Of a stretch of 59,330 nt of DNA, positions 1,251-59,330 are shown piece by piece; within the stretch, counting starts at the first letter, position 1; every line of letters begins with the position of its first letter. The notes beneath the pieces were generated by a model. It was given only the letters and a program-made list of their open reading frames with translations, was not told the origin of the DNA and did not search any database. Source of the stretch: Amoebophrya sp. A120. Taxonomy: Eukaryota > Protista > Dinoflagellata. Both the position numbers and the translations under genes were made by a program. The DNA is taken from assembly GCA_905178155.1 (NCBI GenBank), contig CAJINV010000027.1, positions 1-59,330 on the forward strand, given 5' to 3'.

Positions 1251-1430
1251 CTTCCAGCTCTACTGACGCAAGGCTAGTTGATCCGCCTGCTAAGCTGCTG
1301 AGAAGATTTTGCCTTTCTCAGTCAAACGCTATTAACGATTGAAGCATACTAGCAGCAAGAAGTGGCATTCCGCTTTCTGGTTTTCGGAACAGGTAGGATG
1401 AAAACGCTTGCTGAAGGTAAGAAGAACAAA

Positions 1431-4400
1431 ATGACCGCACTCGGCTTCCTCCTCACAAATTGTGTGGTGGCCTTGTTCGGGAGCTATGGAGGGAGAGTCG
1501 CGGGCGCGCAGACGTCTGCTACCGAAGCATTTTGGAATGATGTACAGGATGCGGGCAATACGAAGGCGAAATGGTTTTCCCACGTTGTCATTTTTTGCAG
1601 GGCGTGCAGGATGGTTTCTGTGGTGCGATCCTAACAACTGACCATCCCCCACACCACTAGACATGCATGATATATATGTTCATCATCTTACGCATTGGTG
1701 GTTCGCAAGTCACGTTTCAGGTTTTTCTTCATCTTCTTCTTCCAAGTACAACGGCGCGATAGGCGTCGGCAAAGCGTGAGTCGGTTTGGCGTATCACACA
1801 TGCCAGTGAAGAACTCTATCGCAACATGAAACGCTACCCCAAATAAAATGACAAGAAGGGAAGTTTTTTCATTGCACCCGCATCGAAATGCTATCCGGCG
1901 TCGCAGAGCCCATGGACGACGGTCAGGAGAATGCCGCGCGGGATGTCATTCAGAACTTTTGGTCCGGCTTCGTGCGGCGGTCGGAGGCTTTTGTGGAAAA
2001 GGCGAAGCAGGAATATGAGCAGCTGTGTGCGCCGTCCGACAATCGAGGATCCATTACTAGGGACCACATCACCTCGCTTTCAGCGCCGCCGCAGCGTCGC
2101 GACGAGCTGATACGGGTTCTACGACTCAAAATGCACGCGAGGCTGAAACACCTTTTCGGGCCGGCGGCTGATCTTGATGCGCTTTCGCCTTTTCTGGGAC
2201 ACAATTGCGACGACAAGTGTCGGAATCTCAGGGCAGAGGCGCTTTGGTTTCCACAATTTAAATCCATAGCAGGCGAGCGGCGACGCCGACGTGTGCAGCC
2301 AGCAGAAGATGAGGTACTGAAAATAGTACATTCTCGTCCAGGGTCTCAAGAACCGGTGCCGCCAGTCGCAGTGTCGAAGACACCCACACACGAATACGCC
2401 GGGTTCACTGTGGAGAAGATGGAAGACCGGTCGGTGCGTCATCGTGTCCTGAAAGTGGACCCTACCGACATGGCACTAGTGGGATGCGCTTTGCATTTGG
2501 AGCACGACCGCGCAGCAGTCACTCCTGGGCGCACGGCGAACACCACTGCACAACCCGCCGTCGACGCGGCGGCAGACGGTTTTAATATCAATGTGCCCAC
2601 ACTGGCAGTGGCGTATCTACTGCTGCACCAGCAAGTGGTGGATGTCGCTGACATGAAAGACGTATCAAATGCAAAAGTGTCTGGGTCTGGAAACTTGTAA
2701 TGCTAAAAATGAATGATAGCCGCACTGCAACAAGCAGCTATGCATGACAAATTTTTTGGCTGCCATGTCTTACGTATTCCGCATGGCAAACTGCGTTTTT
2801 GCATGACAGATAAGAGGGCTTTTTCGTGCCTATGCAACACAGATTCTTGAGTCATGCCAGACAAGCATGACAAACTTGCATTCTTCCAGACCCAGACACT
2901 TTTGCAATCCATAAGACGATATATTCTTCTCGAAGCCCTCGCTCGCTAAGTGGAACCTGCCAGCACCTGAAGCCGTAGCGCCAAAGGCTTCAGGTGCTCT
3001 GCTCCTGCCTCTGCCTTTGGCGCTACGGCTTCAGGTGCAGGGATTCCTGGAATCCCAGGAAGAAAAAGCGCGGCGGAAAGCCAAAAAAGAGGAACTACTG
3101 CGGCGGGAGGCCAAGATCGCGGGGTTCGCCGTGGCGCGAGCGCGGGCTCAGACGATTGGAAACCTGCTGAACATTGTCGGCCGGGGCCCAAGCGATGTAG
3201 GGCGACGCTCGGGTCGTGGCGCGCAAGACTTTTCGGTGGACGGCAAAGCCGCGACGCGAATCGCCCTGGCGCTGCAGCTGATGTACGCTCGGAGAATCCA
3301 GTATCTCCATGGGCGAGAGGCGCAGGGGCTGGACCACATCAAGACGTCGAGCTTCGCCACTTGGAAGTTGCAAAAGCATTTCGATGTGGGCATGGGAGAA
3401 GGCGAGATTCCGCCCGCACTGTTGAACAATACACCCGCGGCGGTTCACGATAGGGCGCGGAAACTAGAAGAGCAACTAGACCAGATGGGCTTGCCTTCCA
3501 CCTTGGAGAGGAACCGCAGAAAGCAGTGGAACGACGGCAGGCTGAGCGTCGACTTTGCCGTGCTGGGCTCCGTGAAAGACAGCAAGCGAGAGTTCTATGG
3601 GACTGCTCTCAAACGTTACATTCTCAACTGCTACGTGATTTTTCATGCAAATTTACCAGCAAGATCGCCACGATGACGATTAAGCTGCTTCGCATGACAA
3701 ATCTACGAAGGGCTCAACAGCACCTAAATATGCGCCAAATCTGTAATGCAAAAGGCGCAATCTTCTACTTCCCCCTTTCAATTTTGTCGCTCTTGCATTG
3801 CAAATTCATGTAACAGTTGAGAATGTAACATTTGAGAACGCCAGAAGTTCGAGGAGTTGCGTGTGTTTTTTGGGCGCTGGTTCAACACCCGAGAACACAC
3901 CTACGTGCACGTGAAGCACGTGACCTGGAAGGGAGAAGTAGGCGAGCCTGGGGCTTCAGAACAACGAGCCGGGCGGCAAGTTGGGAACAGCCCCAACTTT
4001 ATTGCCGGTGTGCTTTCTGTCGGGACACTGGCGGCTCTGCAGCAGACGTCGTTGTGGAAGGAAAACGAAACGAAGTACGACGCCCTGCACTACTTGTATC
4101 TGAGTAATTCTGTCGCGGCTTCGAAGCCCAGCGCTGCCACCGGATCGGCCACTCAAGTCGCCGCCCCGGAGCTGCCGAGGGCTGGAAGCGGTGTTGACAT
4201 GGTACCCGGCTGAAAAAATCACCGCCCGCACTGAGGAACAGACCACATGAGGTATTGGGTGGGCGGAGGTTGTAATTGAGGAAGTTGGACTGCTAGGTTG
4301 AATATTTGTGTGTATCTATAGGTTGCCGCAAGGAAGCAGGAGCGCGACCTCATTTTGCCGCGTCCTCCAGCGGCACGAGGTATAGTTAGCTGGGCATCTT

Positions 4401-5977: not shown

Positions 5978-6370
5978 AGTGCTATCGATCGCCACCCCGC
6001 GGCGGCTTCCTCAAACACCGGGAGGCGGAGCGCGGCCGTCGAGGGCTTTAAACCGGAGGCGGAAGAACAGGCACCGCAGGCGGAGGCCCTGCACTAGTGA
6101 GCTTGGCGGGGGGGAAAATTTTTGCGATTTTTGAATACGAATACCAATTTTGCCGTTATATTCTTGAAAACATCTTCATGTCTTGTAGATCATTAAGCCA
6201 ATAATTTGAGTACTGGTACTAGAGGGTCGCCAGTCCTTTTTACACGGGATAATCCACACCGCAAGCTGATGTGTTGGGAGCCTCTTCGGGACCACGACCC
6301 CGGAAAAGCGCCGAGCGGGAGTGGCGTCGTCCGGGTGGATCGCATGGCGCTGCGGCTGCCCTTTTCGTGC

Positions 6371-10161: not shown

Positions 10162-10190
10162 AGAAGAGAGAGAGAGAGAGAGAGAGAGAG
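10162..10190. repeat. (GA)n microsatellite
   Basis: Visible directly in the sequence. Confidence 0.9.
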
Positions 10191-13103: not shown

Positions 13104-16100
13104 ATGTTTGGAGGAAGTCCCGAGGCCCCGTCGTTGCATCTCGGAACGACGGATCGTCTGCGTCCGCCAGCAACGACGACCGGCAACACCGTATCAAGGT
13201 TGAAAAAGATATACACTTCGTGACTACAACACGAAGCTGGCTGGGGAAAAGTGTTTTTCTGCAAGGCCAGCTTTATTCGAAGAAAAATTGAGAATCGCTT
13301 TTCCAATTTATGTAGCGGCTTATAGCTTGATAGATGCTGGTGCAGCTCCTTTTCGCCCTCATGTGTACATGATTGGTTGCGTTTGTTCGGCTGAATTGTT
13401 GAAAAATCTTTTCACCTTGATAACGGCAAGCAGATCACCGCCCTGGTTCCTGCCCCCTCGGAACGACGGACCGTCGTCGCCCGCCGGCAACTTCAACACA
13501 AGGCAGTGCCGATCTACCCGCACAGGTCGTCTCACCAGATGGGGGGCCGCAAGAGAAGGTTGTCGGCAACCCACGCCGTCCAGCGGCGAAAATTCACCCG
13601 AGCGCCAACCCCACGACCTCCTTGCGGAAGTGGGAGGAGGAGATAAGGACGTCTTTTCACCTCGGCGATGCTACGAAGGGGAAAATAAAGTACTTTTGTG
13701 CATTACTTACTTGTAGGGTTCTGGTTTGTCAGTAGAGAGGCATTTTGGGTGCTACTGCTTCTGAAGAGATGAGCGAATAAAAGAAGTATTTTCTCCTGCA
13801 TACGTTGCTCTTTCGAAGTCGAGCAGCTGCTGGGACGCGGGGGAAGCGCTGAGGTGTACCGCGCCAGCCGGAACGGGTGCGAGTTCGCGCTGAAATCGGT
13901 AAAGGCCCAGAACTATGGATTGCAAATATGTCTGGGTCTGGAAGAGTGGAACTTGTCATGCTGTTTTTGGACTCTGAAAAAATTTGCATTGCGTGATCAG
14001 CAAGAGGAGCGCCGTTTGCGCTACACGGACAACGCGTTTCTCATGTGGAAGGGGCATCAGGAAGCCCTCTAAAAGTCTGCGATGCTAGGTATGCATTACA
14101 GGCATCATGGGTCATGAGAAATATGCATGACAAATCTTACACTCTTCCAGACCCAGACACTTTTGCATTTGATAAGAACAAAAGGGAGCTGGCGGCTTTC
14201 TGGAAGGAGGCGGAGTTGCTGGAGCAGCTCACATATCAAATGCAAAAATGTCTGTGTCTGGAAAGTTGTGATGCAGGTCACTGAACATGAACAATAAGGA
14301 CACTGTAATGCGCCGCCAAGCATGACAAGTTTTTTCATGCTTCTGTTTTGCGTATTCCGCATGAGAAACTGCGTGTTCGCATGACAGGCTAGGGGAGCTC
14401 TTGGTTGCCACGCAATACAGATCCCAGAGTCCTCATGCCAGACTAGCATGACAAATCTCGTCGTAGTCTCCCAGACCCAGACATATTTGCATTCCATATC
14501 ACACGGGCGGAAAAGAAAGAGGAGGGCCGCGAGTACGTGGTCCGCTGCTTCGGGTCGCGATGCGAGCCCGAGCAGTAGCCGCAGTAAATAAAGCGCCACC
14601 ACCCCATAGTCAAGATGGATATATGATCTGAAAGACTTATCGTGAAGCTGTGATGTGCATGACAAGTTTGGGGCCGCACAAGCCTACTCGTGTTTACCTT
14701 CTGCGAACGCATCACTAAGCCACATGTGGGACATTTCGAAACACCACTTCAGGCTGCTTCCCGTGGGGCTGCGCATGACAGATCTGGTTCTGGGGGGCAC
14801 ACGTGCAGATTTACATAAACAGATACACAAAGGATATGCATGACAAACATGGGATGGGGTCGGTTTTCCAGACAATAAAAAACTGCAGATCTTCATCCTG
14901 CTGGAGTACGCGGATTGCGACTTTCAGGAATACCAGCGCAGCTTCTTCGGGCGCCGGTCCGCCAAGTTCATGCCACTGGACGTAATCCTGCACTGCTTCG
15001 CGCAGATGGCCGCCGCGGTGCGCTTCATCCACTCGCGAAGGATTGTGCACTTTGATCTGAAGCCAGCCAACTTCCTGCTGTTCCAGCGGAAAACCAAGCT
15101 GAAGCTGTCCGACTTCGGCCTGGCCAGGGTCCTGGATCCGAACAAAACGCACATCATATCAAAAGGAAAAATCCCCCCTCCCCATGTCAAAACGAAGTTT
15201 CTGATGCTGGATTTGCGTACACGAATCAGATTTGTCTTGCTGGCAAGGACTGCAGGCCCTTATCAAGCCTGAGAAGACAGGTTTTGGCCTAGGCGCGTAG
15301 CATGACAGACTTCTTCGCTGTAGGAACATAAGCATGACAAACCGCCTGTAGAATGCGGCGGAGCCTGTGGAGTTGCCTTCACGCAACACAGAGTCGATTT
15401 GTGGTTACAAACCAGCAACACAAATCTTCGAAAACGTAGCTTGCCAATATGGGGAGGGGGGGTTTTTCCTTTTGATACATCAGCCGCCACCGCCACTGCG
15501 GCACCGTTTTGTATATGGCGCCGGAGGCATTCCACCAAGGCGAGCAGTACGAGCACAGCATGAAGATGCGGTCCGAAACCGACGTGTGGTCGCTGGGCGT
15601 GATTCTGTACGCCATGATCTACGGACGACCCCCGCACGCGCACTTGTACACCCCGCGCGGCGGGGCCAACCGCGCCATGTTTTCCATCATCGATCCCTGC
15701 ATGGAAATCCAATATCCCGACCGATACTCGGTCTACGCGGCGGCCAGCGACAGCTGCACGGTGGCACGACAAGATGAAAACAACCGCGGTAGTTGTACGA
15801 TAGCTGCGCCGGGCAAGCAGCCCGCCAGCTCCTCATCTTCGGCAAACGTTACAGAACCGGTGCTCAACGAACAGAAGTTCGAGCACCTGATGCACCTGCT
15901 GCAGCGTTGCTTGGTTCGGGACACCGGAGCGCGCATTACGGCTTCCGAGCTGGAGTGGGACCTTCGCGTATTAGAGGCGATCTCGTGCGCAACTGCGACC
16001 AGCTTGTACAGGCACTTTCGGTTTCAGAGGGCCGCCATCCGTCCGATTCCCGGGAGCTTCGCGAGCGTGCTGCACGAGAAGCACATTCCTAGCTTGGAGC

Positions 16101-19100
16101 ACATCACCTCTGGGGACACGCGTGCCCCTAGCGAGGCAAACGGGAGTTGCAAAAGCGACGCTTGTATGACTTGCAACAGTTGTATCGCACTTGTTTAGTA
16201 CTACTGGCAAGACGAATGTTTTCTTCTTGAAAAGTGGAATCCGAATTTGTAGAGTGCTGCATCACAACTGAGTCTCAGGAATAAACCAGCTCTGTTATGC
16301 ACGGTTGCAAGTAGTACGAGTGCGATACTACTTTTGCACAGGATATTTTGCCCGGGCAGCCTTGAAAAGTCGGTCGAAGAAGGCCAGGCTCCGGATAGGA
16401 GAGAACAAGCTGGCGGTGAAGATGATCTTGGGAGCTGCACCAACGACGGCAGAATCAAACATAGTGGCTTGGCGCCACTGCCACCGGCAGGCGAAGACGA
16501 AGAATCCGATCGTAGTAAAAAGGCGGGAGACGAGCTACTTCCGGAGGTGGGCAGGGAGCCGAAGAGGCCCAGCGCTGACAGAAACGTCGTTTCTGTGCAA
16601 GAACCAGCGGTGCATGGCTTCAACTGCCGTGCAAAATGGTGGCAAAAACATGATGAGAACGGAAGAAGGTTGAGAACTGCAACTGCCGTTGAACGTGAAG
16701 GGAAAATGAGCTACGCCGCTGCTGCTGTGCTGGAAAATGAGGAAACACCACTGCTGCTGTCGGACGACAAAATAGCGAACGCGCCTGCTGACCGTTCCCG
16801 CGAAGTAGACCAGTGCGTCTCAGCGGAAGGTAGTTTTGAAGCTGGCGGGACAGGGACTACTGCCCATTCTAGCGGCCTTCTGCGAAGCGGCGTCTTCTGG
16901 TCTGGACCTCCTGCAATGATTTTAGTTTCGTGTGCCTTCCTGTGTGCAGGAATCGGGGTGTCCCTGTGCATGGGCTTGTTCGCAACTGGAACGAAGTTTG
17001 GTAATGAGGCCGCCAGGATGAACACGTCTCCGTCGGACGAAAACTCGACGACGAATAGCAGCTCGAGCTGGTCCGTTGGCCCCGGGGCTCCGACTTTTTT
17101 CAATGCATTTCGCGGTGGCGGGGAGCCCGCCGCACGGGTCGGTGGAAACCTGCCGGCTGCGTTAGTCGCACCGAGTCCTCCAATCACACAAGCTAACCCA
17201 CCGCAACACGAGTCGCCCCTGCCACCAGAAGCGACACTTCCGGGAGTGCTTGGCGAGCCGTCACCCACTAGCAGCGGGACATTAATTCCGAGTAGCGATG
17301 CGGCACTGCTGAGCGCAACCTTGCCGACGACCGGAGGCACCTCGTTGATAGGTTGTGGGCAGCCCGCTAGCGATGGGACCTCGACCAGTGGTGGCGCAAC
17401 ACCACTTACCGCCAGCCCCCCGTCCGCAGGTGGTGTAACGGTAGGTGGGCGGGACGGGCTTCAGCAAGATTCGGGTCATGCGGGTCTGCCGGTGTTTGTG
17501 CAGCCTGAACTACTCACCCGCACGGGAGTCGACGTTGCGCAAGCGGGTTTTCTAGCTACACCGGCTAGCAGTACGACGAGCAGAGGCGCGGTAGTACCTG
17601 TGCCGGCGCCACACGAAATACAACTGCCGGCTGCAGATTCCGCCCATGCTGCCTCCACTTGTTCTACTCAGGATCCTTGCGATGGCAGGGCGGTTACTCA
17701 GCCCGCAGATGTTGACGATAACACCCGCCCACAGAGCGCCCGCGATGTAGTTTCGATTGGTGCAAGAAGTAACGCCGGCGAGGCCGCCGCGCTCGCGACG
17801 AATAATGATAACTCAGAGGAGGTTGAACAAAGCCACGATGGGCTTGTTGCTCGTAGGCGAAGGCACGAAGAGACCTTGCCTCCGCAGGGCACCAGACACG
17901 CCAGTTCTGCTTCCGGTGTTTTAGGCAGTAACGCTTCGTCACGAGTCGTGATCCCAGCACCGCGGCACCGTACGTCGTCGGAGCAAATAACAGCACATCG
18001 TACTTCAACTTCTGCCAGTGCCATCGGACCAAGCAGCGCTGCGTCGAATACTAGTAGCGGAAATTCGCCTTTGCGGTTTCGGAGGACCATGCCTCGCCCT
18101 GCGAGCGCAGCAGCCCCGGCCCCATCTAGTGCTTCTGCAAGCACATCGCAAGACCATTCAGTGCCGACGCTGCCGTTGCGTGGGAGAAGTTCCAGTCCCG
18201 CGCCAGCAGCCGGCAGAGGGTCGTCGTCGAATACGCGCCATCAAAGTGTCGAATCCAATTTGGTGTCGCAAGAAGATCGAGCGTGGAGCAGTAGCCGAGG
18301 TGGCGTAGGAGCCAGAAGCATTGCGGCTGCCCGCCCTCTGTATCCCGACATTCCAAAAACATCGGAGTTGGCAAGGTCTTTGTCGTCATCGAGTCTAAGC
18401 CCCTGGAGGTCGAGCTGGCCAAAGCCCTGGAGCCTGCCGAAGGTGGGTGGACCTGGCATGAACCTGTTCGCATCAAAGGGGAGGGCGAGTAGTGCGTCGG
18501 AAGTATGCATGGTCATAACGCCGCCGAGACTCCGCATCCATGCCCAGAAAAATATGCTTGCCACAGCGTGTGTTGGGGTTTCGCGCTGCCGGCAGCCTCC
18601 TAGATCGAGGTCGTTGCCACAGTTTGTAGAGTGTATGTTGTTTTTGTAGTTCAGCTCTGTACAACCGGGTTGCAAGCGTCTCCACCTACTCCAATATTAC
18701 ACTTTGATTTTAGTATACGAATAACAAGGCGGATGTGGGGGTGAGGCTTTCAAAGTTATCATAGACGAGCGGACGAAGAGACGCCGGCCACCCTAGTGGA
18801 CCACCGATCCGCGCATTGCCGATGCAGCCACCTTACGTTTCGAAGAAATGTTTGGGTCTGACGGATAAGATTAACTGAGAAAAATGCGACTGTGCATGAT
18901 GCAGCACAAACGTCACAACATTATTTCGTTGTTCCGCACAGCATGCGAGCATGACAACCCGAATCAAATGCGCATGTGGGTTGTTAAAAATGTGCAACGG
19001 AAATCTGCCAACACTCAGACCCATGCGCGTTCGCACATAATACGCCGCCAAGCAGGAGCGCGCGACCGAATGCAGCAGCGTCGCCAGACTTCAACTCGAT

Positions 19101-23330: not shown

Positions 23331-23597
23331 TATCAAATGCAAATATGTGTGAGTCTGGAGGGTTGCAACTTGTGATGCTATCTCTGGATTCTAATAGAAT
23401 CTGTATTGCATGACCAGCAAGAGGAGTCCACTTTGTGCTACGCGGAAAGGGCATTTCTCAGGCGGAGTAGGCATCGGCAAGCCGTGGAAAAATCTGTGGT
23501 GCTACGGCATGCATTACAGGCGTTATGGGTCATGGAGAATCTGCATGACAAGTCTTGCAACCTTCCAGACCGAGACATTTTAGCATTTGATGGTCAG
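23331..23597. mobile_element. Introner family A outside any recognisable CDS
   Basis: Family A TIRs; perfect DR gtcag; flanks give only short frames. Confidence 0.9.
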
Positions 23598-24973: not shown

Positions 24974-25240
24974 TATCAAATGCAAAGGTGTCTGGGTCTG
25001 GAACAAAGCAACTTGTCATGCTAAATCTGAAGCATGTGAAAATCTGTGTTGCATGATTTCCAAAAGCTGTCCACTTTTGACCTAATCGAGAGGCAGTTCC
25101 TGATGCAGGATAGACATGAGAGAACTCTCACAGAATCTGTAATGCTATGTCCTACATGCCAGACCTTATGGGCCATGAAAAATCTGCATGACAAGTCTGG
25201 CATTCTTCCAGACCCCGACATTTTTGCAGCTGATACGATT
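24974..25240. mobile_element. Introner family A, probably in the 5' UTR of gene 3
   Basis: DR cgatt; ends 77 nt before ATG 25318. Confidence 0.9.
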
Positions 25241-25317
25241 GGGGCGACATCAACTAGTGTTTTGGTTCCACGAAAAGTTCCACCAGCTGTAGCTTCTTGT
25301 GACGAGGAAGGGGAGCC

Positions 25318-42824: not shown

Positions 42825-45800
42825 ATGAAACGCATCTTGCAAGCTTCGTTTCTCGCCGCCGGCGCGGTGGTCGCTACTCATGCGGACCGCCAGGAGCCCG
42901 CAGCGGACCCGGGAGAGCAGGGGCTCGACCGCTTTTGGACCGACGTGCAAGCTGGTGGGGATATGATTTGGAACAAGATGGTTCTGCCACTTCTACAGAA
43001 TAGGTTTATTGCATTTGAAGACTTGTGTTTGTTTGCAAGAGCTACGTACAAGCTTCGCACAGTAGGCGTGACTGGTGCTAATATCTCCACCTATTTTTAA
43101 AAAGTGATGCATGAGGCGAGAACCGGATCGATCGGAGTTCTTTGAAGCACTGCACAGGGAAATTTAGATATGCCAAAACCTCCTGGTAGCGGAATTATGA
43201 ACGCTTTTCCTTTGCACAAGGGCGCGCATGTTGCAGACAGCAGCGGATCTCGAGAACGAACCGAACCCGGTGATCGCCGCGTACTGGGAAGGCTATGTCC
43301 GACGCACGAAAGCATTTGCTGCGGAGGCGAAAAACCACTACGATCGACTGTGCGGAACGGATGCGATTTCCGATCACAAGTCGAGGGCAAGTGGTGACAC
43401 TAAGGGAGCGAAATTTCGGAAACTGGATTCAGGTGCGGGAGAGCCTTCGCCGAACGGGGGTGGAGCTGCACCAACGCCGGACTATGCAGCTGGCGTCGAA
43501 GATGATGTGAAGCTGGAGATAAAGAACCGCCTCAAAAGCTTGTTCGACTTGACCAGCACCGCGGAGGAACCTGTGATGCCGACAAGCGAGCAGGAGCTTC
43601 TTCGAAACTGGTTTTTCTTCTCTGATCAAACTGATGCAAGTGGCACACCGCTCGTCGAGGATGCCGTGCTGAAGGTTGTGCGACAGAAAGCAGTGCTCCC
43701 CCCTGCGAATCATGCCTTTGACGTGCGGGTCTCTAAGACTCCGCAGCACTCTACTGAGCAAGTAGCTCTGGAGACCATGGAAGCACGACAACCTCGGCAC
43801 CGCGTCGTCAGAGTGGAATCGCGCGACATGGCGCTCGTGGCATGTGCCTTGCGACTGCAGCACGAGAAGGCGGCCACGCAGCCGGGCCTTGGCAGCACTA
43901 CTACTGCTCACGGCACGACCTCCACAGGATCATTTTTGAGTACGACCGGCATGTTGGGGAACACCAGAGCCAGCACCCGCGCGACCACGAGCAACCCGCG
44001 TCCGCACGAACCAGAGGGCGTGACCATTCCCACACTGGCCTCTGCATTTCTTATCAAATGTAAAAATGTCTGGGTCTGGAAACTTGTAATGCTGCGTTGG
44101 GAATAGTGAATGCTCTGTAATGCACAAACAAGCATGAGAAATATCTGCGCTTCTTTGTGTTGCGTTTTTCGCATGACAAAGTGCGTTTTTGCATGACAGG
44201 CAAAAGGGTTTCTTCTTGGACACGCATCACAAACTTTTTGGTCATGCCAGACAAGCATGACAAATCTCGCAATCTTCCAGACCCAGACATTTTTGCATAT
44301 GATATTTCTGCTTTTCCAACAAAACATTCTGGACTTCGCAGACATGCAGAAGGATGCTTTGTTCGACACGATGTGGGGGTCCAAGCTGCTGTTTGACCAC
44401 GACGTGCCGGAAGCGGCCGCAAAACGAGCCGGCTTCGCGGTGGCGCGGGCCCGCGCGAAGACCATGGGCAACGTGATGAATATTGTCGCCAACAGTCGGC
44501 AAAGTAGCCGTCAGAACTGGCAGCACCACCTGGACACAGCAACTGCCGCCAAACTCGCCGTGATCGTGCAGTTCATGTACGCACGCCGGCTGCAGTACCT
44601 TCACGCGCAGGAGGCCGCAGGCTATGACCACATCAAGCTGTCGAGCTTGTGGGCGCTCAAGGCAGGAGGAGGTTTTGCAGACGTCAAGGAGTTGCCCCTA
44701 CCAGCTGATGTTGCGGAGCAGTACCAGGATGTGAAAACAACGCGCCGACTTTTGGAGGAGAGTCGGAACCTGGCCTGGAATGCGGGGATATGCATGGCAA
44801 ATAGGTCTGAGTCTGGAAGGATGAAAGCAAAAAAAAATGTCTTGCATGGGCGTCCTCAAAGTTTTTTGTTCTTGCTACGCAAAATCCGGATTTGTCATGC
44901 GGGGACGGCATCCAGAGGTGCCTGACCAAGGCTTGTGCTCCTGCTCTTGCACGCAACATTCGTGGGCTCCGCGTGCGCGTGGCCAAAAGATGCCTGAAAA
45001 GCATCTGTTTGCATCCAGACCCAGAAAGACTTGCACTTGATAGGGTAAGCTCAACATCGATTTCGCGGTCGTAGGCGGAACAAACGGTGAGGTCGGTGCA
45101 AAGGCGGTCGCATGGAGAGAATTTCACTCACTGAAACTTGTGCTCGACGAGTGGTTTAACGAACCCATGCGCTTGGCCCAGAGAGAAGCCAATCCAGACC
45201 TGATCACGAACCCAGGTGGTCCTGGTGGCCCAAACAGTGGGACGAGCTCAAGTAGCAGCGACGGGGCTGATGTGTCGTCGACCACGAATTTCTACAGACC
45301 GTTTGTGGATACGATCGAAGCAGCATGGGAAGGGGAAGACGGGGAAATGCATATATCCTCTGAAGACCAGCAAGAAAACCACGGGGCGCAGGCAGAAGCG
45401 GTTGCTGGCGTGTTGCACGTGGGCACCCTACAGGCTCTGCAGCATGCGTCACTGCGGAGAAATGCCACTGAAGAGAAGAGGTTGCGATACCTCCACCTGG
45501 TGCCGATTCTGAGTAGCGGCGCAACCCATAGTTTGCGACCACGCAGTGAAGATAGTGGTCGGTCGAGGATGGCGCCGGGCACAACTCCCGAAGCAGGCGT
45601 TGGTGCGACTGACGTTCTTGCTTCGGCCGCTCACGAGGAAATGCAGAGCAGCAAGACCCCATTTCACCAAGTTGCAGTTGAGGATCATTTTTTGGCACCG
45701 GAAAGGGCAGCGGAGCTGCACTCCACGGTGAAACAACACCTGCCCGGCGCGGACACGTTGTTGCCGCTAGTTCGCTTTTTGCAAGTGCAGACGCAAGCTG

Positions 45801-48800: not shown

Positions 48801-51800
48801 TGGCTGGGGTCTCAAGCTCGGGTCGAAGTACCTATGTACACGAAAAAAATGAAGTGCAACACCTCCTGCGAGAGTTTGGCCTGAGGATATTCAACGTTGG
48901 TCAGCGACTTTCAAATCATACCCGGGCACAGGAGGTGGCCGCAAGCGAGCAAGAGCGCGAGGTCGAAGCAAATGAGGAGGGAGCAAGAGCTGGTTTTCTA
49001 GCGGCGTTGCGATATCGCTTTGCCTTGCAAGAACAGTTTTTCAGAAAAGTTCGGAGCCAGTTACTGCAGTTTCACAAATTGCGCAATGAGCGAGAAGCCG
49101 ACGCGGGACAGCTACTTTACTTTTTCGGACCGCCGGAGTGCGACAAACCCCCGAAGGCGAAGTTTATGGGACATGGCTTGTTTTTGATCCAGATTGCCCT
49201 CTTCGAGCGATTCTTCTTGGACGGCCCGGAAACCGCAGCCCTCCGTGACTGGCGATCGGGGTGGCCATCTGCGCCTGGGCGCACGCATTGGCCGCCTCTG
49301 AGTATGAATGTTACGGCGCGGGATGGCTGGGTTTATGCCGAACCGCATGAGGACCAGGCTTGGGAATATATAGCTGCCTATCTCGCCGACGAACACTTCG
49401 TGGGGATGAATCAGGAGAAAACGCAAGCGTATGCGATCTACAACGAAATGGACAGCAGGGCAAACGCGCCGGGCGTTGGAGACCAGCTGCACCGTATGGC
49501 GCAGGATGCGGGTGCGGCTCTGGCGGATGTGGCAGAAGACACTGTGAGCGCGCTCTTCCCTCCTGTCGTAGCGGAGCGTAAGTGCGAGACGGTGGGCGTC
49601 GTCACTACAAAGGATGCAATGAAATGCGACTCAAAAGTGCACACCCTGCCGCCGTTCTTTCACCACAACCCCTGGGCCGTATCGCGGATGATGGCGACGT
49701 GTCTGACCCATTTGTCGAACAGCGAACAGCACGCGACAACCGGTATAAATGGACAAGCAGCCACAGTGCCCGTCCGGGTTCTGACGAAGCTTGGAATGGG
49801 GCAGCTGGTGAACATGATCAAGTTCATGCGGTGGCAGTTTCAGAACGACTCCTTGCCACACCACGAGCCAAAAGCTGCCGTCGCGAACTCATCCAGCGTC
49901 GCTGAGCTTCACTCGACAGCGGGCAAGCTGTACCTGTTCCAGCCGAACGAAGACTTCGAGATATTCTTTCGGAGTTTCGCTCCAGAAGGTGCACCAGAAT
50001 GGACAGGAATGCGGGAGAAAACGGTGGAGCACCATTCGTTCGCAAAGAGGCTCTTCGAGGAAAAGCAAATGAATCACATTGCCATGATATATGCAGGGGG
50101 CAGAAACGGCAACTCCACCTTCCGCGAAGAGGATTTCGTGGACCAGCGGTTGATCAGAGACCAATTCATACTATCCCTTGAGATGTTCCACAAATCGCTG
50201 GAGACGAGCGAGTCCGTCCTCGGCGCACCGCAGCGGGCCCCGGTCCATCGGAGACGAGCGCTGCTCGAGGAATATCGCAACATCGCGAAAGCGAGGCGTG
50301 AGGCGGAACAAAACTTGCGTGGGTTGCTAAGGATTCTTGATAACGTTAACCACAAAGACCTTGTGGACCGCAGTTACTACGAGGCTGTGTTTTTGCGGCG
50401 CGACGAAAGCGAAACTATTACTGCAGGTGGTGCTGCGGGGCGGCCACAACATGGCTTAGCCCCTGACTGCGAGTTTTTGCAGGGCGCCTACCGCCTCGCG
50501 TACGAGTTGCAGAGCGCGGCTTCTTCCCCCGAAAACCTCCGCGTTGAGAGGAGACATAGGGCCGCATCAGGTTTTCTCACGCAATTCGGGTCTAGAAGAA
50601 GCGAGTTGCTACGAAACGGACTGCAAATCGTTCCGGCGAACACTTGGAGACGGCATCTACGAGTGAACAAAATGATTCTTTCATCGAGAGAAGGAAGTCA
50701 AAACACTGTTCCAGATTTTTTACTAGACCCAGTTGTGCCGGTAGAAGCAGAAAACGCAGGAAGCGAAGATCAGTCAGCGACCGCAGGAGCAGCCCCCGCA
50801 GAAGTGGCAAACGCTGGAAGTGAAGCTGAGGAGGCACATGCGGTAAAAACGCGCTTGCCTGACCTGATTTTCGAGAAGATACTTCCTTTGTGCAAAGCAC
50901 CGGCAGGGACTGCACAAGCAGCTCGCCTCGCGTCTGCTGTAGCAGATGCCCTGCAGCTGGTAGAAAACGTCTTGCCCGAGCCAGTCCTGGCCGAGCAAAA
51001 GGTTGTGACAGTAGCAGGCACAGCGACTCCAGGATTGGCCCTCTATCCAATGTAAAAATGTCTGGGTCTGGAAACTTGTGATGCTAGGTGGCGTCTCATG
51101 ATGAGGCTACAAATGCTGGCCCAGCATGACAAGTTTCTGAGCTCCTAGGTGTTGCCTATTCTGCATGACAAACTGCGCTTCTGCATCACAGAAAAACGGG
51201 GCTCTTGGGTAACATGCATGACAGATTTAAGAGTCATGCCAGACAAGCATGACAAACATGCAATCTTCCAGACCCAGACATTTTTTCATTTGATACCCTC
51301 CTTCCTGCAGCAACAGCGCCTGCTCCCGCACCCCCTGGAGCCGCAGCTTATGGCGTTCTCAACTGTTACATTCTGAACTGTTACATGGATTTGTGATGCA
51401 AAAATGGCAAAAGCGAAAGGGGGAAGATTGCAAGAATTGCATTACAAATCCCGCACAGATTTAGGTGCTGTTTAGCCCTTCGCAAATTTGTCATGCGAAG
51501 CAGCTTGATCTCGTGGATGATGATGGTAGTTTTGCATGACAAATTCATGTAACAGTTGAGAATGTAACGTTTGAGAACTCCATACAGCTGCCTTTCGGGC
51601 TAGAATCCAGGAGTTCTACGGGAACCGGCCGGACAAAAACAGTGCTGTTGTGGTCTCGGTACTAAGCCAAGCCGCAACCGCACCTCTGCCGCAGCTTGTC
51701 GAAGAGATCCTCGTTGATGACTTGGTGCAGAACCTCGACCGACTCACCGTCGCCCATTCCGCCCAGCAGAAAGAGGTGGAGAAGCAACTCGCGCTCGTGA

Positions 51801-54800
51801 TTCAGGAGGAGCTGCAGGGCATGCTCGCTTTCGTCATCGTACCGGACGTAATTGATGGTGTTGCACCACCTCCGGCAACAACATCAACTACAAATGCAAC
51901 GAGCACGACAAATAATACGCCCCCTGCAGCAGCGGGAGCCGTCGCGCTTGACGACAACACCTTAGTATCGGAAAAGACTTTGCTCCACGAGATCGTCACC
52001 GAGCTGAAAGCGGTTGCGAGCAGAGGGCAACGCGCGGTGGCGGGGGGCAATCAGGTTGCTGTGGCGAATACTCCGAATACGACGCAAACCTCCAACAACA
52101 GCGTGCCATTTCTGCAAACCTGTCGGGAGAACTGCATTATGAAACGCAACGCCCACCTAACCGCCTGCCACGGGCTGATTCACTGTTGCAACGTCGGCGT
52201 TCTCATGAACCCGGAAGGCCGGTCCGGCCCCGACGAAACTGAAGAGGCGATGACGGATTTGCAGATCAGGTTTCCTAAACCCTACGAAGGCTGTCTCGAA
52301 ACCGGGTGCTGTTCCAACGGGCTGAGTGAGCGCAATGCGGCTCCGTGCAAGAACATCGCGGAGTTACTGCCCCACGGCCATCCGTTTTTTTCGAAACTCA
52401 CGTTCCTGGAGGACGAGATTCGCTACAAAGAGTTCTCGGGCCTGGGCGTCGGCGCGTGCCAGGTCCTCCCGCTGAACGCGAAGCAGTGGGACATCTTCCT
52501 GGCCTACGCGGGTATCGCCGGAGCGTATTGGGGCGGGGCCCTGCTGATGTCTCTCCTGTCGAAAGGAAGGTTGGTCCAGGAGGCGATGTACCTCCTCGGA
52601 CCCGGGCTGCAAAACTTGAACCACGGCTTTGAGCGTGCGTTGTGGTACAGGACGGCCACGTGGCGAGGCATACCAAATGCAAATATGTCTGGGTCTGGAA
52701 GGTTGGAACTTGTAATGCTGGTCTTGCATTCCTGTGAAATCTGTATTGCGCGACCAACAAAAGTGGTAGCCTCTCATGTCATTACAAAAACGCAGTTTAT
52801 TCTCATGCGGAGTTCGTATGGGAAAGCGTTCTGCAAACTTGTTCTCCTTTTTTGCATAAGGAAGTGTTTTTCTCTTGCACATTTTAGCATCACAAATCTT
52901 CAGACCCTGACAACATAGTTGCATTTGATAAGGCATCAGGGAGGGCAACGTTTTCGGCTGGCTTAAACTCGTGCGTGACGTCGTGTTGCCCTGGGTGCCA
53001 GCTGGTGGCGGAGGTGCAGGAGGAGCTGGACAGGGTGGGAGCGGCGGAGGAGGGAGCGGCGGCGGCGGAGGTGGTGGCAACAATAATGGCACACCGTCGA
53101 TTCGGTTTGGCGTCCTCTTCGGGCGAGGCGCCGTCGACGTGAGCATTCAGTTGTTGCAGGACTTTGGCATCCCGCTGTTGATCGAGAAGTGGATTTGGCC
53201 GGAAGTGAAGAACTACTGGGAGCCGTTGCTGCGTGGCGTGTGGAAAAATATCTTCACGAAATTGCTCTCGGATCATGCAGTTGAAGGCGAAGCGACTGAT
53301 GCTGACTCAACAACAACATCAGCGTCATCTTCTGGCAATTCTATCATCAACTACCGCAAACTCCTTCTGCAGGAGCAGACCTGCCCTTTCGCGAGAAAGC
53401 TCCACTGCAGCCACTACGCGCCCACGCGAGCGGCTTTCGAGAATGCGGCGGTGCACTTCGTAAAAGCAGTGGTGCTGGATACGCAGTTTGGTCCGGGTGA
53501 GGTGACTGTGTACCAAGAGCTTGACCGGTGGGAAGCGGAGTTCGAAGTGCATGCCGGCGAAGACACAGGAGTGTTTTCAGCTTCCACAACCACGACGAGC
53601 GTAGCTGCTCCCGATGATCATGCAGCTGAAGATAGCGACGACAGTATGCCCTCTACCACAGCGCCGCCGAGTAGTGGCGGGTCGTCGGAAGGGGGATCGA
53701 CGAGCCCCGAGGGAGCATCGTCTCCTGCGTCGCCGAGTGACGACGTCGAGATGCAGGAAGAGGAGGAAATCATGGGCAGTGGTACTACTGTTACATCAAC
53801 TGGTGGTGCAAATAATTCTGCCACATCAACGACAGGAAGCGAAGGGGGAAACAACACTACAGGACAGCCACAAACAGCTCCACAAATCCAGCAAGGCGCA
53901 GCTGCTACCAACCACACGTCCTCCCAACCAGGTAGTGCTACTAGCCCCCAACAAGTAGATCCAGATATGGCAGCCGCGGCGCAGTTGCTCGAGGAAGAGA
54001 TGAACCTGGACCCGTTACAGCGGTGGCACAACATGCAGGGGCTTATCCTTGCGAACATGCGGCAAGAGCGCGAGAGAGCGGTCGCGCGTGCGGATTTTAA
54101 TTTCTTCGGCGTTTTATTCCAAGGGAACGGCTTCCATCCCGGCCAAGCCGTTGAGCAGGGTGTGCAGGCGCACGTTGTCAACAACCCGGTGTGGCAACGG
54201 TTGCGGGAGTTGTTTCTCCGGATGTGGAATCACGGCGTCAACCACAATCACGTGCAGAACATTTCCTATTACCTACGGCTCGCCCTGGAGGTTTTCGAGA
54301 TCATTGCGCAGCTGGCGGGGGACGGTGCCTCGATCTTTCCGTGGCTGCGGGCCATTGCGCAGATCATCGCGCCGCTGTTCCGCTTGCTGTCGGGCGCGTT
54401 GAAGATCGGCTCGCTTGGGGAAAAGTTCCCGCCCTTTGCACAGCGGTGGCTCGCACGGGAGGAGAACGAAAAGCAGTGGAGAAGAGCGAAATTTTATCTC
54501 GGGAAAACGCTGTGTTTTTTAAGTAGTGGCACATGATGTCTCGGCATGACAGCATGACAAATCTGTTTCGCATGTTGACAGAAAAAGCAGACGTCACGCA
54601 CAGCCAGTACACCGTGAATGCACATATGTTGAATAAATGCCGCTTCAGGCCCGGCTAGCGTGACGAGCGTATTTTTAATGCTCTTGCTGTGCTGTTAGTA
54701 CATACGTACATACATGCATTACTTTACAGACTTACGCTCACACAGCTCTTCTCTTGCATAAATGTGAGAAGGTTTTGTGCTCGGCGGCGTTCACCTCTGC

Positions 54801-57800
54801 AACTGGAACGGGACAGCGTAAAGGCGGTTCTTTTTTGACACAAACCCTTTCGCGCATGAGCGAGTTGCAAAAGAAAATTTTCCATTTCCGGATCCGGGTC
54901 GGCATGGATCCCTGTTGGAAAGTTGTCGCCCCGAAAGACCTATTTTGTGCAAAAGTGTCGTCTTTCGCGTACTAAAATTGCGATCATATTGCATGAAAAA
55001 TAGATGTGTGATCTCGTCCTGGATGACCTTGCAGGATAGTTTGCATTTTATTCTCTTTGATAATATGGCAATTTGTCATCGCAATTTTTACTAGTACGAG
55101 CCGATAATTTTGCAATGCATAAGACCACTGCACGTGCCTGTTCAGTGTTACGCACAACGACGAAGTCTTCAACGAAGCCGTGCGACGGGTTATATGCTGT
55201 GTAAAAACTAGCCACGGCCCCAATCCAGACTGGTCATACAAATCTGCAAGAAGCTTGAAATGTTTCTCATGAGCAATCCCGACCTGAAAAGCAGGTTCTA
55301 ACGCTGCCTTACAGTTTGTCATGCTAGAATCAGGATAACGATAAGGAGGTCGATTTGCGATGCAGCTGGAGTTGCACTAGATTCACTCGAATATTACACT
55401 GAGATGAGCGCAAACAACTTGTCTTCATGCGCGACAGCAAAAAGCTGTTGTTTTGTGTGGTAAAGCACCCATCTACTTGTTGACTCTTGCGGCGGGGACG
55501 TGTTATTTACTCAGGATAGGGCACCAGGGCGGGATATCATCGAGAGTATGCGCAGAATGCTGCTGTTGCTGAGCCCCTCAAGGCCAACTGGTTTGCGCGT
55601 CACTTGTCTGCGAGACAGAGGGAAGTGTTTGCCGCCCATGCTGTTCTCGTAGAATCACCGCCAGCTGGACAACAAGGCAGCATTGATTTGGAGCACAGAA
55701 GACTCAAATCCGTCGACCTTTCGAAAGATTTCCTGGCGTCACTGTATTTGGAGAAATTCGGTTCCCGCACAGGAGGTGAAGTAAGCGACGAAGGACCCGG
55801 GCTGTTGCAGCAGGCACGCAAGAGACGGAAAAGAAACAGCGAGAGGGAACTCGTTGCCGACTTAACGCATACGATCGCCGCAAACATTGCCGAGGAGACA
55901 CTGCAGCTCACGCACGACGAGGTCGTCGGGCCGGTCCGGGAAATTGCGCAGACGGTGGCGCCCTTCGCGCTGCGCAAATTGGCCAAGGAACTCTGGAAGC
56001 CGAAGGGCCAAACCGAAGAGGAGAGTGCCCCAAAACCGCCGCCAGCCAAGCCGGAGGCGAAGGAAGCTATCCACAGAATATTTTATTTCCGTACACGTAC
56101 GATAATTGCGGACTCTGCATGACAACACTTGCCTGTGATCCTAGTCAGCATAGCAAGCGTCAATACACTTTGGGTTGGCGAAATTTGTATATGCATTTCG
56201 TGCGTCGTGTCCGTGTGCGGGACATTTGTGTTGCATACAAGCCGCACAGATATTACCGACAGGAAAGCCGGAGCCGCAGGGAAAACCTGACGGGATTCCC
56301 GTCGAAGCAGACTCGGAGAACAACGGCGGGCAGGCCGCAAATAATGTTGCGGGATCTTCTAGACAAGCTGCAGGAAATCTTGCACAAGGACCGCCTGTTG
56401 GCAAACAGATTGCTATCCCTCCGTCTAGTACTCCGAAGAACGCCCCGTCCAGTAATTATTCCAGCACTTCTGCATCCACCCGGCCGTGTAACTCGACGTC
56501 GAGTACCGGGCGCAGCCGGGCCGGAACATTGACCTCGATGTACCCCGAGGAAGACTTCTGCGAGGGAGGTCCGGCGAGCGCTCCTCAATCCGCGGGGCCG
56601 CAGAGCGTCCCTTCTACAACCGGCGGACAGCATGGTGGCAGCTCGCCGCCAGGCGGTGCGGCTCCATCTGCGCCAGGCGTGGGTCCCTACCTGAATGCAG
56701 ATGCTTTGGCGCGGCTACCCATACCCGTGGCCGGGAATCTTCCCGGTGGTGGAGGTGGTTCTTGTAATGCCAATTTGACCACGAACCAGCAAGGTGGACC
56801 ACACCAAGCACAGGCTGCAGCGCCTTCAACGTGTGGAAGGTCTTCTTTCGTATCTGCTGTTCCAAATCCCGTCTTGCGCGGCGGGAAGGAGGCCGTGTTT
56901 GCTCATGGTCCAGCAGGCGGAGCTTCAATGGCGATGTCCGTAGACAACAGCACAAGAGCTCCGGGAAGCAGTGCGGCGAGTGTGGTTTCATCGAGCTATG
57001 CTGCGAGCAGTGCAGGACACACGTCTAACCAGATCCTTATGGCATTCTCAACTGTTACATTCTCAACTGTTACACGGATTTGCTATGCGACATTGCCATC
57101 AGCCTCCACTTGATCAAGGTGGGTTGCATGAGAAATCTTCGAAGGACTAAGCAGCATCTAAATCTGTGGAAAATCTGCGATGCGAAAGCTGCAATAATGC
57201 CACTTTCAGTATTGCTGTTCTTCTTCTTGCATTACAAGTCCATGTAACAGTTGAGAATGTAACGTTTGAGAACGCCATAATCCTTTATGGTTCGTCGGCT
57301 ACATCCACCACTACCGCTTCCCCGCTGTCTGCGCAGGGAACGGGTGTGCTGGTGTCTACTGGGCAGGTGTCCTCAGTGTGTAGTAGTTCTACTGGCTGCA
57401 ACTACTACAACAACGCGAGTTGTTCTGGTGTCCTCTCAACAGCATCGGCTGGAGCTGCATCACCCGGTGCGCCGCAGCAGGCAGCCTGCGGTGCAATGAA
57501 TTCCCCTGCGCCGGCGCAGGAGCCACAATCCAGCATTTCAGCAGGCGGACCACCTTTACACCCCCCCGGCGGAGCAACAACATCAACTCCAGGCGCGCCG
57601 AGTACCAGTGTTCCGTCGTTTCTGCGGCTAAAGATCGACCCAACTACTAACCCGAGCAACCTCGTGGCCCCGCCCACACATGACACAGACCCGTACGGAA
57701 GTAAATCGAAAGCAGCGCGAAGAGGGCATCTACAAGCATCTGGAGACGAATTTTCGCCCACGACTATTCTAGCGAAAAGACGGAAGTTCGACGCACCTCC

Positions 57801-59330
57801 GGGGACAGCCCTCGAACCGTTCCCGCCGCTTGTTGGGGGAGAAAATTCTGCGGGCGGAAGTAGTGTTGATACGTTTCTCCCCGGGGCCGCGAGTAGCGGT
57901 GGCGGCGGTCCGCCGCGGCGCCCGGGCGGAAATGGCGAGGACAAAGATCATATCCACTGTAAATGTGATGTCTGGGTCTGGAACATTGGAACTTGTCATG
58001 CAAAATTTGGACCGCACAGAAATCTGTGTTGCATGAGCGGCTGCAATGAGTGTTTCCCTAATTGTGGTTGACGAGCGAAAACGAAAAGCGAATCTGTCAT
58101 GCGGAATACGCATTCAGAATCTCTTGCACAGTCCTCTGATGTGAAGATGCTTCTGGGTGCATTCCCGAGGCGGGCTATCTTCGTGTTCGACATCTAGGAG
58201 ATGCTGATGCATGACACACCTTGTACTCTACTTCCAGACCCACACCACATTTTTGCACGTGCATATGTGAACATCCGGGTGACGGACCCAACAACAACTC
58301 CGGGGCGGGGACAGCACAGGCGCAGCTGCAAACCGTAGCGGAAGAAGATGAGACTGAAGAGGACGAGGGGGGGCAGGCTAGCGACGGATCATCTTCCCCC
58401 GGTGGGGACGCCTCGTCGCACGTCAGCACCGAGCACTCCATGAACGCCCTCGAGAACAACACGCCGTCTTTCGACATTCCGCCGCGGCGGAACGCGACGA
58501 TAATCCCCGCCGGGGTCCAACTACTTCCTTCACCAAAAGGTGGGGCCCCCGGAAGTTCATCCTCATCCTCATCCTCTGGCAGCGCAAGTTCATCCTCCTC
58601 TTCTTCAGCTGCATTTAGTTCTCCTCCAGGACCACTGCAGATGATGAGTCACAACGGCGGGGGAGGTGCAAGCGCAGGCGGGCTTCGTCAAATGGACATC
58701 GACCAGTCGCCTGATTTGTCATCGATCTCGCGGACATCCACAGCTGGACGGGAAACGGTAAACTCCGAAGGCAGCGGCACCTGGAGCAGCGGCGGTCAAC
58801 ACGACAACCATGCCTCTACGTCGCCTTCCCGCAATTTATTCTCCCCACGGGGTGATCAAGAAGGCTGTGCACCTACAACTTACAGCAATACGCACATCGG
58901 GGGACAAGGGCTGCATGACCAACAAGCGGGACCGAGCAGCGGGTCTTCTTCCTCTTCCGCGCCGGCAGCTTCTGGTGCGAGCAGCACACCTGGTGGCGCG
59001 TCTCAACAATTGTCCGCGAACACTGTGCTGTCGCCATCGTCGGTTTTGGAAGGTGCATCGAGTGGAGTGTTCCTGCCGCTGCCGAAAAACCTTCCTGCGG
59101 CAGCTTCGTCCTCTGCCTCGTCGCCCCAGGCTGGCAGCAGCTCGACGTCTACGTCGGTTGGTGGTGTCGTCCGGGGTCGTGGCCTAGCGCGGCAACATGA
59201 CAACAGTATTGTAAGGAAAAATCCCCCCTCCCCATATCAAAACGGAATTTCTGATGCTGGATTGGTGTACACGAATCAGCTTTGTATTGCAGAGAGGCAT
59301 TGCGGCCAGATCCCCAGGCTAGGTAGGGGC
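42825..59330 (+). CDS. Gene 4: giant (>4000 aa, incomplete at window end) multidomain protein with signal peptide, gene-1-like N-terminal region, alpha/beta hydrolase, SecA-like fragment, hydrophobic segments and low-complexity tail
   Basis: Signal-like MKRILQASFLAAGAVVATHA. Exons 42825-~42955, ~43220-44051, 44310-44788, 45048-51043, 51301-51348, 51590-52670, 52936-54494, 54766-54940, 55127-55192, 55524-56067, 56243-57037, 57285-57950, 58271-59206. Every junction from 44052 on is in frame after removing element + 5 nt. Confidence 0.8.
44052..44309. mobile_element. Introner family A
   Basis: DR tttct; removal gives SAFL|LFQQNIL (gene 1 AYLLLHQQVV). Confidence 0.95.
44789..45047. mobile_element. 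Introner family A, diverged
   Basis: DR gggga/gggta; removal gives WNAGKLNIDFAV (gene 1 WNDGRLSVDFAV). Confidence 0.9.
47219..48290 (+). CDS. Acyl-protein thioesterase/lysophospholipase (APT1-like) alpha/beta hydrolase domain in gene 4
   Basis: IVVVYLHEFG, IRVVCPQA, PSWY, DLEASAKFVEEVMQRE, LYLAGSSQGAVLAL (GxSxG, Ser at 47705), LKGLISYHG, STDTIFP (Asp), LQHGG (His), in the order seen in APT1/LYPLA. Confidence 0.8.
48542..48898 (+). CDS. SecA-like fragment in gene 4
   Basis: EVDYSV...TTGR...DDGLIQFLQLKH...FFSQYRRIFAM parallels SecA DVDYIV...FTGR...SDGLHQAIEAKE...YFRLYxKLAGM. No Walker A or DEAD motif seen nearby. Confidence 0.6.
51044..51300. mobile_element. Introner family A
   Basis: DR ccctc. 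Confidence 0.95.
51349..51589. mobile_element. Introner family B, reverse orientation
   Basis: DR cagct; in frame with ORF 51650. Confidence 0.95.
52671..52935. mobile_element. Introner family A
   Basis: DR aggca; in frame with ORF 52971. Confidence 0.92.
54495..54765. mobile_element. Degenerate introner
   Basis: TAT..ATA; DR aattt/aatgt; in frame. Confidence 0.8.
54941..55126. mobile_element. Introner family F
   Basis: Perfect DR agacc. Confidence 0.9.
55193..55523. mobile_element. Introner family G
   Basis: Ends similar to 19365 (tatgctgtgtaaaa / tttactcaggata); +5 removal in frame with ORF 55604. Confidence 0.8.
56068..56242. mobile_element. Degenerate introner
   Basis: TAT..ATA; DR gaagc/caagc; in frame. 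Confidence 0.8.
57038..57284. mobile_element. Introner family B
   Basis: DR atcct; in frame. Confidence 0.95.
57951..58270. mobile_element. A-related introner
   Basis: tgggtctggaa / ttccagaccca; DR decayed; +5 removal opens a stop-free frame to the window end. Confidence 0.85.
59207..59330. mobile_element. Introner family E, cut by window end
   Basis: aaggaaaaatcccccctcccca...tttctgatgctggatt matches the start of the 15157 copy. Confidence 0.9.

Follow-up and report, generated by a model that had tools for sequence, protein, structure and literature searches.

Why introner families whose ends appear unrelated should carry one and the same short internal motif is the question raised by a 59,330-nt stretch of contig CAJINV010000027.1 from the dinoflagellate Amoebophrya sp. 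A120 (hereafter, the window). An initial annotation, made from the letters alone, proposed this motif as a common cis-signal, either for a shared transposase or for the excision machinery, and took its retention in old introns to favour a role in splicing. The statistics reported here draw on the window and on one related metagenome assembly, from which a family A pattern retrieved 150 loci that merge into 139 non-redundant pieces totalling 575 kb; a scan of viral contigs gave 0 matches. The idea of a cis-signal common to many introner families is supported. [quoted passage not shown] Such a mobilisation signal fits the transposase option of the annotation, while the data lend no support to the box acting in splicing.

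The shared box and its spacing

The exact 9-mer GCATGACAA/TTGTCATGC is found 43 times in the window (26 on the plus strand, 17 on the minus strand), whereas 100 shuffles averaged 0.72 copies and never exceeded 4; this bears out the recurrence first noted. All 43 copies lie inside introner-type elements, within 42 intron-like intervals (10,189 bp) from a list compiled partly with the motif hits already known. It is also the commonest 9-mer in the 575 kb of related loci. The motif trained by expectation maximisation on element interiors is RRYYTGTVATGC, with a mean of about six per element; elements carry about 3-7 boxes, variants and both orientations are present in every named family, as had been claimed, and at least one box occurs in every copy of each named family, with the exception of one of the five copies of family H. 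The density of strong boxes is 15.9/kb in the family copies compared (148,540 bp) and 0.065/kb in the long open reading frame (ORF) cores that served as exon proxy (183,462 bp), which hold 3 exact copies; the rarity in exons is thereby upheld. The gap analysis was restricted to 144 gaps with strong flanks, since the gene parser predicts too many introns in intergenic DNA; a strong box is present in 74/78 of those assigned to a family, 0/11 GT..AG gaps, 1/3 unassigned TAT..ATA gaps and 5/52 others. Outside family copies, window and loci hold 95 strong boxes, and the inspected ones of the window sit mostly in old introns. Among the individual sites of the annotation, 18949, 19491, 26316, 28640, 39357 and 56117 are correct, 54544 is a variant box with the exact copy at 54552, 55315 should read 55316, and the stretch 1587-1726, with which the finding was said to start, has no box. 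The GT-AG introns 20455-20673 and 36495-36761 indeed lack an exact copy, but the second holds a strong variant (15.6 bits) at 36713.

The arrangement of the boxes is regular. Boxes of the same direction are 31-33 bp apart, a spacing also visible within the window (15199/15232, 15300/15332 and 15383/15415 among others), and those of opposite direction mostly 16-17, 46-50 or 68-71 bp. For 65 boxes in 12 group representatives, the best period is 10.5-10.6 bp, with a score that 0/5000 random placements match, and the result is the same with all 20 cluster consensuses and with either of two 12-representative sets. In a scan of periods from 6 to 40, a period of 10.6 scores 0.42, 11 scores 0.25 and 32 scores 0.18; a 16/32-bp lattice was rejected, as it fits worse than 10.5. 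The helical repeat of B-DNA is about 10.5 bp and that of A-form RNA is near 11, and box spacing phased at 10.5-10.6 bp therefore indicates a protein that reads double-stranded DNA. The first inward box begins about 33, 43 or 54 bp from the element end, in steps of about one helical turn, and among the outermost boxes the 15 that face inward are in phase with the terminus (R 0.75, p about 2e-4; the 9 that face outward were left out). Box number, order and orientation vary by family while the phase holds.

The ends of the elements share more than the annotation suggested. In the end profile of 424 elements, T1, A2 and T3 each reach 0.98, a value partly imposed by the search, and A11-13, which was not imposed, reaches 0.85-0.91, giving a shared terminus TAT-N7-AAA. 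Among 384 pairs of terminal inverted repeats (TIRs) found without any filter for a target site duplication (TSD), an exact 5-bp TSD flanks 264, any other length at most 28 and a 6-bp TSD none. The 'unrelated ends' of the annotation thus reduce to TIR positions ~14-30, which are family-specific and self-complementary. Nor are the TIRs nearly gone at 19491, 55316 and 56117, which sit in copies still 75-80% identical to their family consensus. The 20 clusters of at least four copies fall into 12 groups whose consensuses, after masking of boxes and outer ends, have no mutual BLAST match, and hence the box and its phase have been retained while the intervening DNA diverged; some family consensuses are linked by short matches around the boxes. 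No target-site preference of the insertions was found.

These elements are Amoebophrya A120 introner elements, described by Farhat et al. 2021 (PMC7789003) in the text portions available to us as having inverted repeats of TAT, seven variable nucleotides and AAA, short direct repeats, a hairpin, non-canonical junctions and many families. The window elements agree with this description: their ends carry the published signature in the 424-element profile, the exact 5-bp duplications fall within the published 3-5 nt at the exon/intron boundary, and non-canonical junctions are removed in one direct transcript joint, in four TIR introns by fit of length and frame and in gaps against a paralogue. 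When a kinase exon was used as query, the four proteins recovered were all named Amoebophrya sp. A120, and the best of these kinases (57-85% identical over its pieces) aligns across introners of the window. A scan against Rfam gave no match.

Removal from RNA and decay with age

The transcript evidence comes from a contig of 4328 nt (run X8), displayed in five pieces over 16754-23266, whose RNA status is presumed, yet which has no GT-AG introns. It contains one direct joint (19360/19700) at which a family E element and 5 nt are removed. In a model that removes four GT-AG introns and five TIR introns, the resulting length is exactly 4328 nt, the three gaps not displayed are matched, and a single frame stays open through every joint to codon 1095. 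The TIR introns of the model and one of its neighbours are the following:

18834..19042, very old TIR intron; single remaining box at 18949; removal of the element plus 5 nt predicted from a 66-nt contig gap
19365..19698, older family E copy with decayed 3' ATA; boxes 19491 and 19524; direct transcript joint 19360/19700
20173..20369, box-less TIR intron (best score 1.9 bits); end duplex -42 versus -19 +- 3 shuffled; TSD decayed; probably spliced
20455..20673, plus strand, canonical GT-AG intron; no box and no end stem
20939..21159, old box-less TIR intron (best score 4.0 bits); end stem -22 versus -13 +- 3; 5' edge visible in the contig, with probable removal of the element plus 5 nt
21235..21507, older family A copy; boxes 21275, 21312, 21396 and 21458; probably spliced

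A splice signal is expected in every spliced intron of its class, and the box is missing from two of the five, 20173-20374 and 20937-21162, which nevertheless fit as precisely spliced (inner boundaries inferred). By contrast, the duplex of the two ends lies 2.9-7.8 standard deviations (SD) below shuffled sequence in all five TIR introns, versus at most 1.6 SD in five GT-AG introns tested. The inner TIR may also bear traces of pairing as RNA. Single-sided changes at TIR positions 14-30 form wobble pairs (G-U on the RNA strand) rather than mismatches at a ratio of 233:168, equalled in 0/4000 permutations (311 copies), and the bias persists at normally invariant columns (121:87, p 0.0125) and agrees in eight of nine groups, while it is missing from TIR 1-13 (141:127), boxes (390:416) and spacers (1426:1419). 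The terminal stem, rather than the box, is thus likely to be the signal for removal from RNA. Two RNA readings of the box itself were rejected: pairing between boxes as an extension of the hairpin is not a general rule, with pairing probabilities from 0 to 1 between copies and wobble changes not favoured where outer boxes pair (52:45, p 0.13), and a branch point (UGAC) would agree neither with the lack of strand bias nor with the lack of a single distance to the 3' end. Elsewhere, no spliced joint was found in the region 39340-59330 among the matches listed, and the raw RNA runs X4-X6 did not cover window exons. In run X4, about 80 RNA reads from another locus match 52670-52719 and 51262-51295 (a family A end), with flanks that resemble a further imperfect inverted repeat of ~30 nt, suggestive of abundant unspliced or nested hairpin RNA.

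The box is indifferent to the transcript strand, which would not be expected of a signal read on RNA. Relative to the consensus orientation, 198 insertions are with the gene and 232 against it (430/542 copies strand-assigned), the RNA strand carries 225 GCAUGACAA and 223 UUGUCAUGC, and core mismatch by RNA orientation is 0.100 versus 0.091 (311 non-seed copies). The box also loses its sequence over time at roughly the rate of the termini, of TIR symmetry and of the TSD. Given that the loci were chosen with a family A pattern, 165/542 seed-matching copies were excluded from the decay tests. From young to old copies of the non-A families, mismatch rises from 0.044 to 0.194 in the box and from 0.013 to 0.144 in TAT, and in 364 copies the slope of box decay is 1.14 (0.86-1.69) times that of TAT plus AAA and 0.95 (0.75-1.25) times that of TIR asymmetry. 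Copies without an intact box number 4/50 (4.5 expected) and 5/98 (1.9 expected), a binomial behaviour with no floor in old copies. With three independent age proxies, the increment is 0.056-0.096 for the box and 0.061-0.098 for TIR asymmetry. A post-insertion clock based on gene duplicates yielded only one pair, with zero differences. The argument from retention to splicing is thus not borne out, as the box decays, shows no strand preference and has no floor in old copies, and the two box-less introns also speak against the splicing option. As for retention as such, it depends on how age is binned: by spacer identity, the exact 9-mer is found in 28/49 of the oldest copies versus about 16-21 simulated, whereas by TIR asymmetry it is found in 32/70 versus 27-38 simulated, with no excess.

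Several observations weigh against a box that serves mobilisation only. Its increments lie somewhat under those of the TSD (0.091-0.109), of TAT/AAA (0.108-0.126) and of the invariant spacer columns (0.119-0.135), the last clock also including differences between master copies, and together with the excess in the spacer-identity bin this means that mild retention may occur. The box-less spliced introns come from a single contig in which short exons are not displayed, and both could stem from families that never carried boxes. The wobble bias is concentrated at positions 21, 25 and 29 and reversed in family E (15:31). When the 31-33 class of spacings is dropped, the same-orientation phase falls to 0.06, and the opposite-orientation signal alone persists (-0.45). 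Finally, there was no transposase among the 20 window ORFs scanned with Pfam, and for A120, too, no putative transposase is reported by Farhat et al. (PMC7789003, in the text available). No long autonomous element was found among the TIR pairs in the 575 kb; of three long pairs considered as candidates, one is a chance pairing of neighbours and two are copies with inserts.

The slower decay and the 28/49 excess are what an auxiliary role in splicing would predict, in which the box acts as a facultative enhancer, read on RNA or bound by protein on DNA to flag the intron during transcription. The restriction of the box to non-canonical introns (74/78 versus 0/11 above) agrees with it, and another splice signal is needed because neither A120 nor A25 yielded a detectable U1 small nuclear RNA (snRNA), according to the parts of PMC7789003 at hand. 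We nonetheless regard this explanation as unlikely, since the box has no strand bias and no floor on intact copies, two box-less introns fit as precisely spliced, the spacing suits 10.5-10.6 bp better than 11, and detection by hidden Markov model probably favours old copies with boxes, which would inflate retention.

Helix phasing suits any multivalent DNA binder, among them a host protein with another job, such as transcription or chromatin packing, whose sites would favour their carriers by targeting or shielding. The box resembles TGCATGCA, a site linked to ApiAP2-type factors. Such a host function is quite improbable, given that the box is nearly absent outside the elements (the 95 strong boxes mentioned above) and is positioned relative to the element termini, as end synapsis predicts. 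An origin of the box by CpG decay was set aside on the argument that it would not yield a phased 9-mer. Least probable of all is passive descent of every family from one ancestral element with the box as functionless relic: the common outer TIR and TSD length indicate one superfamily, some consensuses share short links around boxes and the 31-33 spacing could be ancestral, but box-masked interiors no longer align while boxes persist in nearly all copies of the named families, and the constancy of phase despite varying box number, order and orientation, with end distances in steps of about one helical turn, calls for selection in transposing lineages.

Elements and neighbouring sequence in the window

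The remaining elements and introns of the window are listed below.

2663..2913, family A introner; TAT..ATA with exact 5-bp TSD; boxes 2695, 2742, 2781, 2801, 2834 and 2865; spacings 39, 20, 33 and 31
3599..3845, introner of family B with approximate limits; boxes 3640, 3692, 3741 and 3795
13914..14174, introner of family A within kinase gene 1; boxes 13953, 13984, 14077, 14093 and 14125
14234..14498, family A introner in opposite orientation to 13914..14174; six boxes
14590..14877, older family E copy; boxes 14657, 14773 and 14838
15157..15477, family C introner; box pairs 15199/15232 (33 bp), 15300/15332 (32) and 15383/15415 (32)
16165..16345, older copy of family D with a single weak box at 16259
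23331..23592, family A copy; box pairs 23370/23401 and 23511/23543
24974..25235, family A copy; boxes 25013, 25044, 25098, 25137 and 25186
26218..26642, old TIR intron of no assigned family within kinase gene 2; gap agrees with the paralogue; boxes 26316 and 26427
26860..27037, older family D copy; boxes 26933 and 26981
27313..27424, family L introner, 112 bp; boxes 27349 and 27381
27490..27638, family D introner; boxes 27532, 27563, 27579 and 27597
27991..28475, two introners, one of family A (27991-28260) and one of family D (28327-28475)
28610..28795, old intron of no assigned family with approximate limits; a single perfect box (28640), about 31-32 bp in from its left end
28953..29221, older family A copy; five boxes
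30041..30261, 5' part of a family B copy, ahead of a 96-bp satellite; boxes 30088, 30146 and 30196
35518..35789, family A copy
36495..36761, plus strand, GT-AG intron of a kinase gene; lacks the exact 9-mer; strong variant box 36713
44052..44304, family A copy; among its boxes are 44084/44115 and 44191/44224/44255
44789..45042, old copy of family A (67% to consensus) with a single interior box at 44892
51044..51584, two introners, one of family A (51044-51295) and one of family B (51349-51584)
52671..52930, family A copy
54495..55518, three older copies: K 54495-54760 with box 54552, D 54941-55121, and E 55193-55518 with boxes 55316 and 55355
56068..56237, family H copy; box 56117
57038..58265, two copies, one of family B (57038-57279) and an older one of family A (57951-58265)

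The variant box at 36713 may mark an ancient introner turned canonical, or be there by chance. Two related loci hold family A copies with intact TIRs and TSDs and ~370-580 bp of extra internal DNA (L022, 632-1465; L050, 3862-4492). The 96-bp satellite (30511-33958; 35.5 copies, 94% matches) is flanked by family B sequence, with the 5' part at 30041-30261 and a 3' TIR at 34363-34405, which may belong to two elements because their flanking 5-mers mismatch.

With regard to genes, two paralogous kinases (13800-16000 and 25990-27650) carry different introner insertions, and the first apparently continues in frame to about 22226; a third kinase lies at 36240-37340 and a UCH domain at 40190-40780. 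The open frame 45044-51043 (2000 codons) contains no introner and has no Pfam match, and its start resembles by eye that of the gene at 1400-5970. Within the long ORF 25303-26226, a 69-bp tandem repeat (25350-25660, 4.5 copies) would encode a 23-residue repeat if coding. The motif (G/A)TGTGTCGCT is repeated in intergenic DNA (801, 8726, 8901, 24226, 24377 and 41835; one copy only in the related loci), twice about 0.6-1 kb ahead of look-alike genes near 1400 and 42830. Inverted arms at 10010-10400 and 12440-12720, built from a GCGAAACGCGAAAA unit (10112, 10209 and 10300 versus 12452 and 12617), enclose about 2 kb with an internal duplication near 11170-11800 and are possibly another, box-less non-autonomous element. 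A GC-rich intergenic segment is duplicated at 6290-6600 and 7500-7790 (common 19-mer at 6416 and 7598) and adjoins family A fragments at 7231-7392.

Related systems, proposed mechanism and meaning

Compared with the published introner elements, what is new here is the phased, shared box and the split of roles between box and stem, together with a uniform 5-bp TSD, set against the account in PMC7789003 as available. The text of the main paper and supplement seen for that source does not describe the internal motif, which its figures (inverted repeat logos, snRNA alignments) could show, and no description of the box in Amoebophrya was found in the limited collection of literature searched. The best lead to the enzyme is A120 introner family 38 of Gozashti et al. 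2025 (PMC12130899, in part), about 810 bp long, with integrase-like homology and annotated as Ginger with a 5-bp TSD and TA/TA termini. It resembles the window elements in TSD and termini; among the rows listed there, the short A120 families appear under superfamily 'Unknown', and other family lengths (about 106, 149, 160, 208-214, 252-260, 278, 305 and 320 bp) match families of the window.

Within the integrase-related groups, IS3EU and GingerRoot (PMC10045372 and PMC6839031, both in part) share the TA..TA termini, and their DDE transposase would suit the proposed partner, but their TSD is usually 6 bp and GingerRoot TIRs measure 100-150 bp; the GingerRoot text available makes no mention of subterminal repeats. 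The window elements are not filed there because their TSD is 5 bp and not 6, nor under Ginger2 because their termini are TAT..ATA and not TG..CA, although the Ginger2 TSD of 4-5 bp (PMC10045372; 6 bp according to PMC6839031) fits. Binding of subterminal repeats by the transposase is established for Hermes, a hAT element (PMC10368747, in part). In Hermes and piggyBat (PMC10368747 and PMC11707139, excerpts), several short repeats inside the ends are bound by transposase domains as the transpososome assembles; the boxes likewise form several short repeats inside both ends, and may by analogy work alike. The differences are another superfamily signature, one 9-12-bp box across many TIR families on a helical lattice, and elements that also serve as introns. 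Nonconventional introns of euglenids (PMC11282704, in part) are similar in joining their ends by a TIR-based RNA stem, in TSD-like repeats and in a probable MITE origin; they belong to a separate lineage, and the portion of text consulted mentions no internal phased box.

According to the mechanism proposed, one transposase oligomer (likely of integrase type, Ginger/IS3EU-like), or an accessory DNA-binding partner, would bind several boxes on one face of the duplex, hold both element ends together and cut at the shared outer TIR, so that a single enzyme would mobilise every family. Farhat et al. argue against general transposase-mediated mobilisation in A120 (PMC7789003, text portions). The inner TIR would form the RNA stem through which the cell removes the element plus 5 nt and, because this is its likely job, would be free to drift as long as its arms stay complementary; the boxes would be largely dispensable after insertion, and hence decay. 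More tentatively, at somewhat less than even odds, all of this may be one modular system. A single integrase-type transposase would read the TAT-N7-AAA tip and the phased GCATGACAA box lattice on DNA, the sequence-free RNA stem would be the whole splice signal of a non-spliceosomal excision, and the free stem segment would act as family barcode; any DNA gaining tip, stem and phased boxes would become a mobile, self-erasing intron, and the box binder may stay on to mark young introns.

A DNA signal (the box) kept apart from an RNA signal (the stem) leads to direct predictions for splicing assays, in parallel to the nonconventional introns of euglenids. Box DNA with defined spacing would serve as bait for the binding protein and as a signature for the autonomous element. 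A box common to all families would explain how one enzyme could move some 1,954 inverted repeat families, the count given for A120 by Farhat et al. (PMC7789003, as available).

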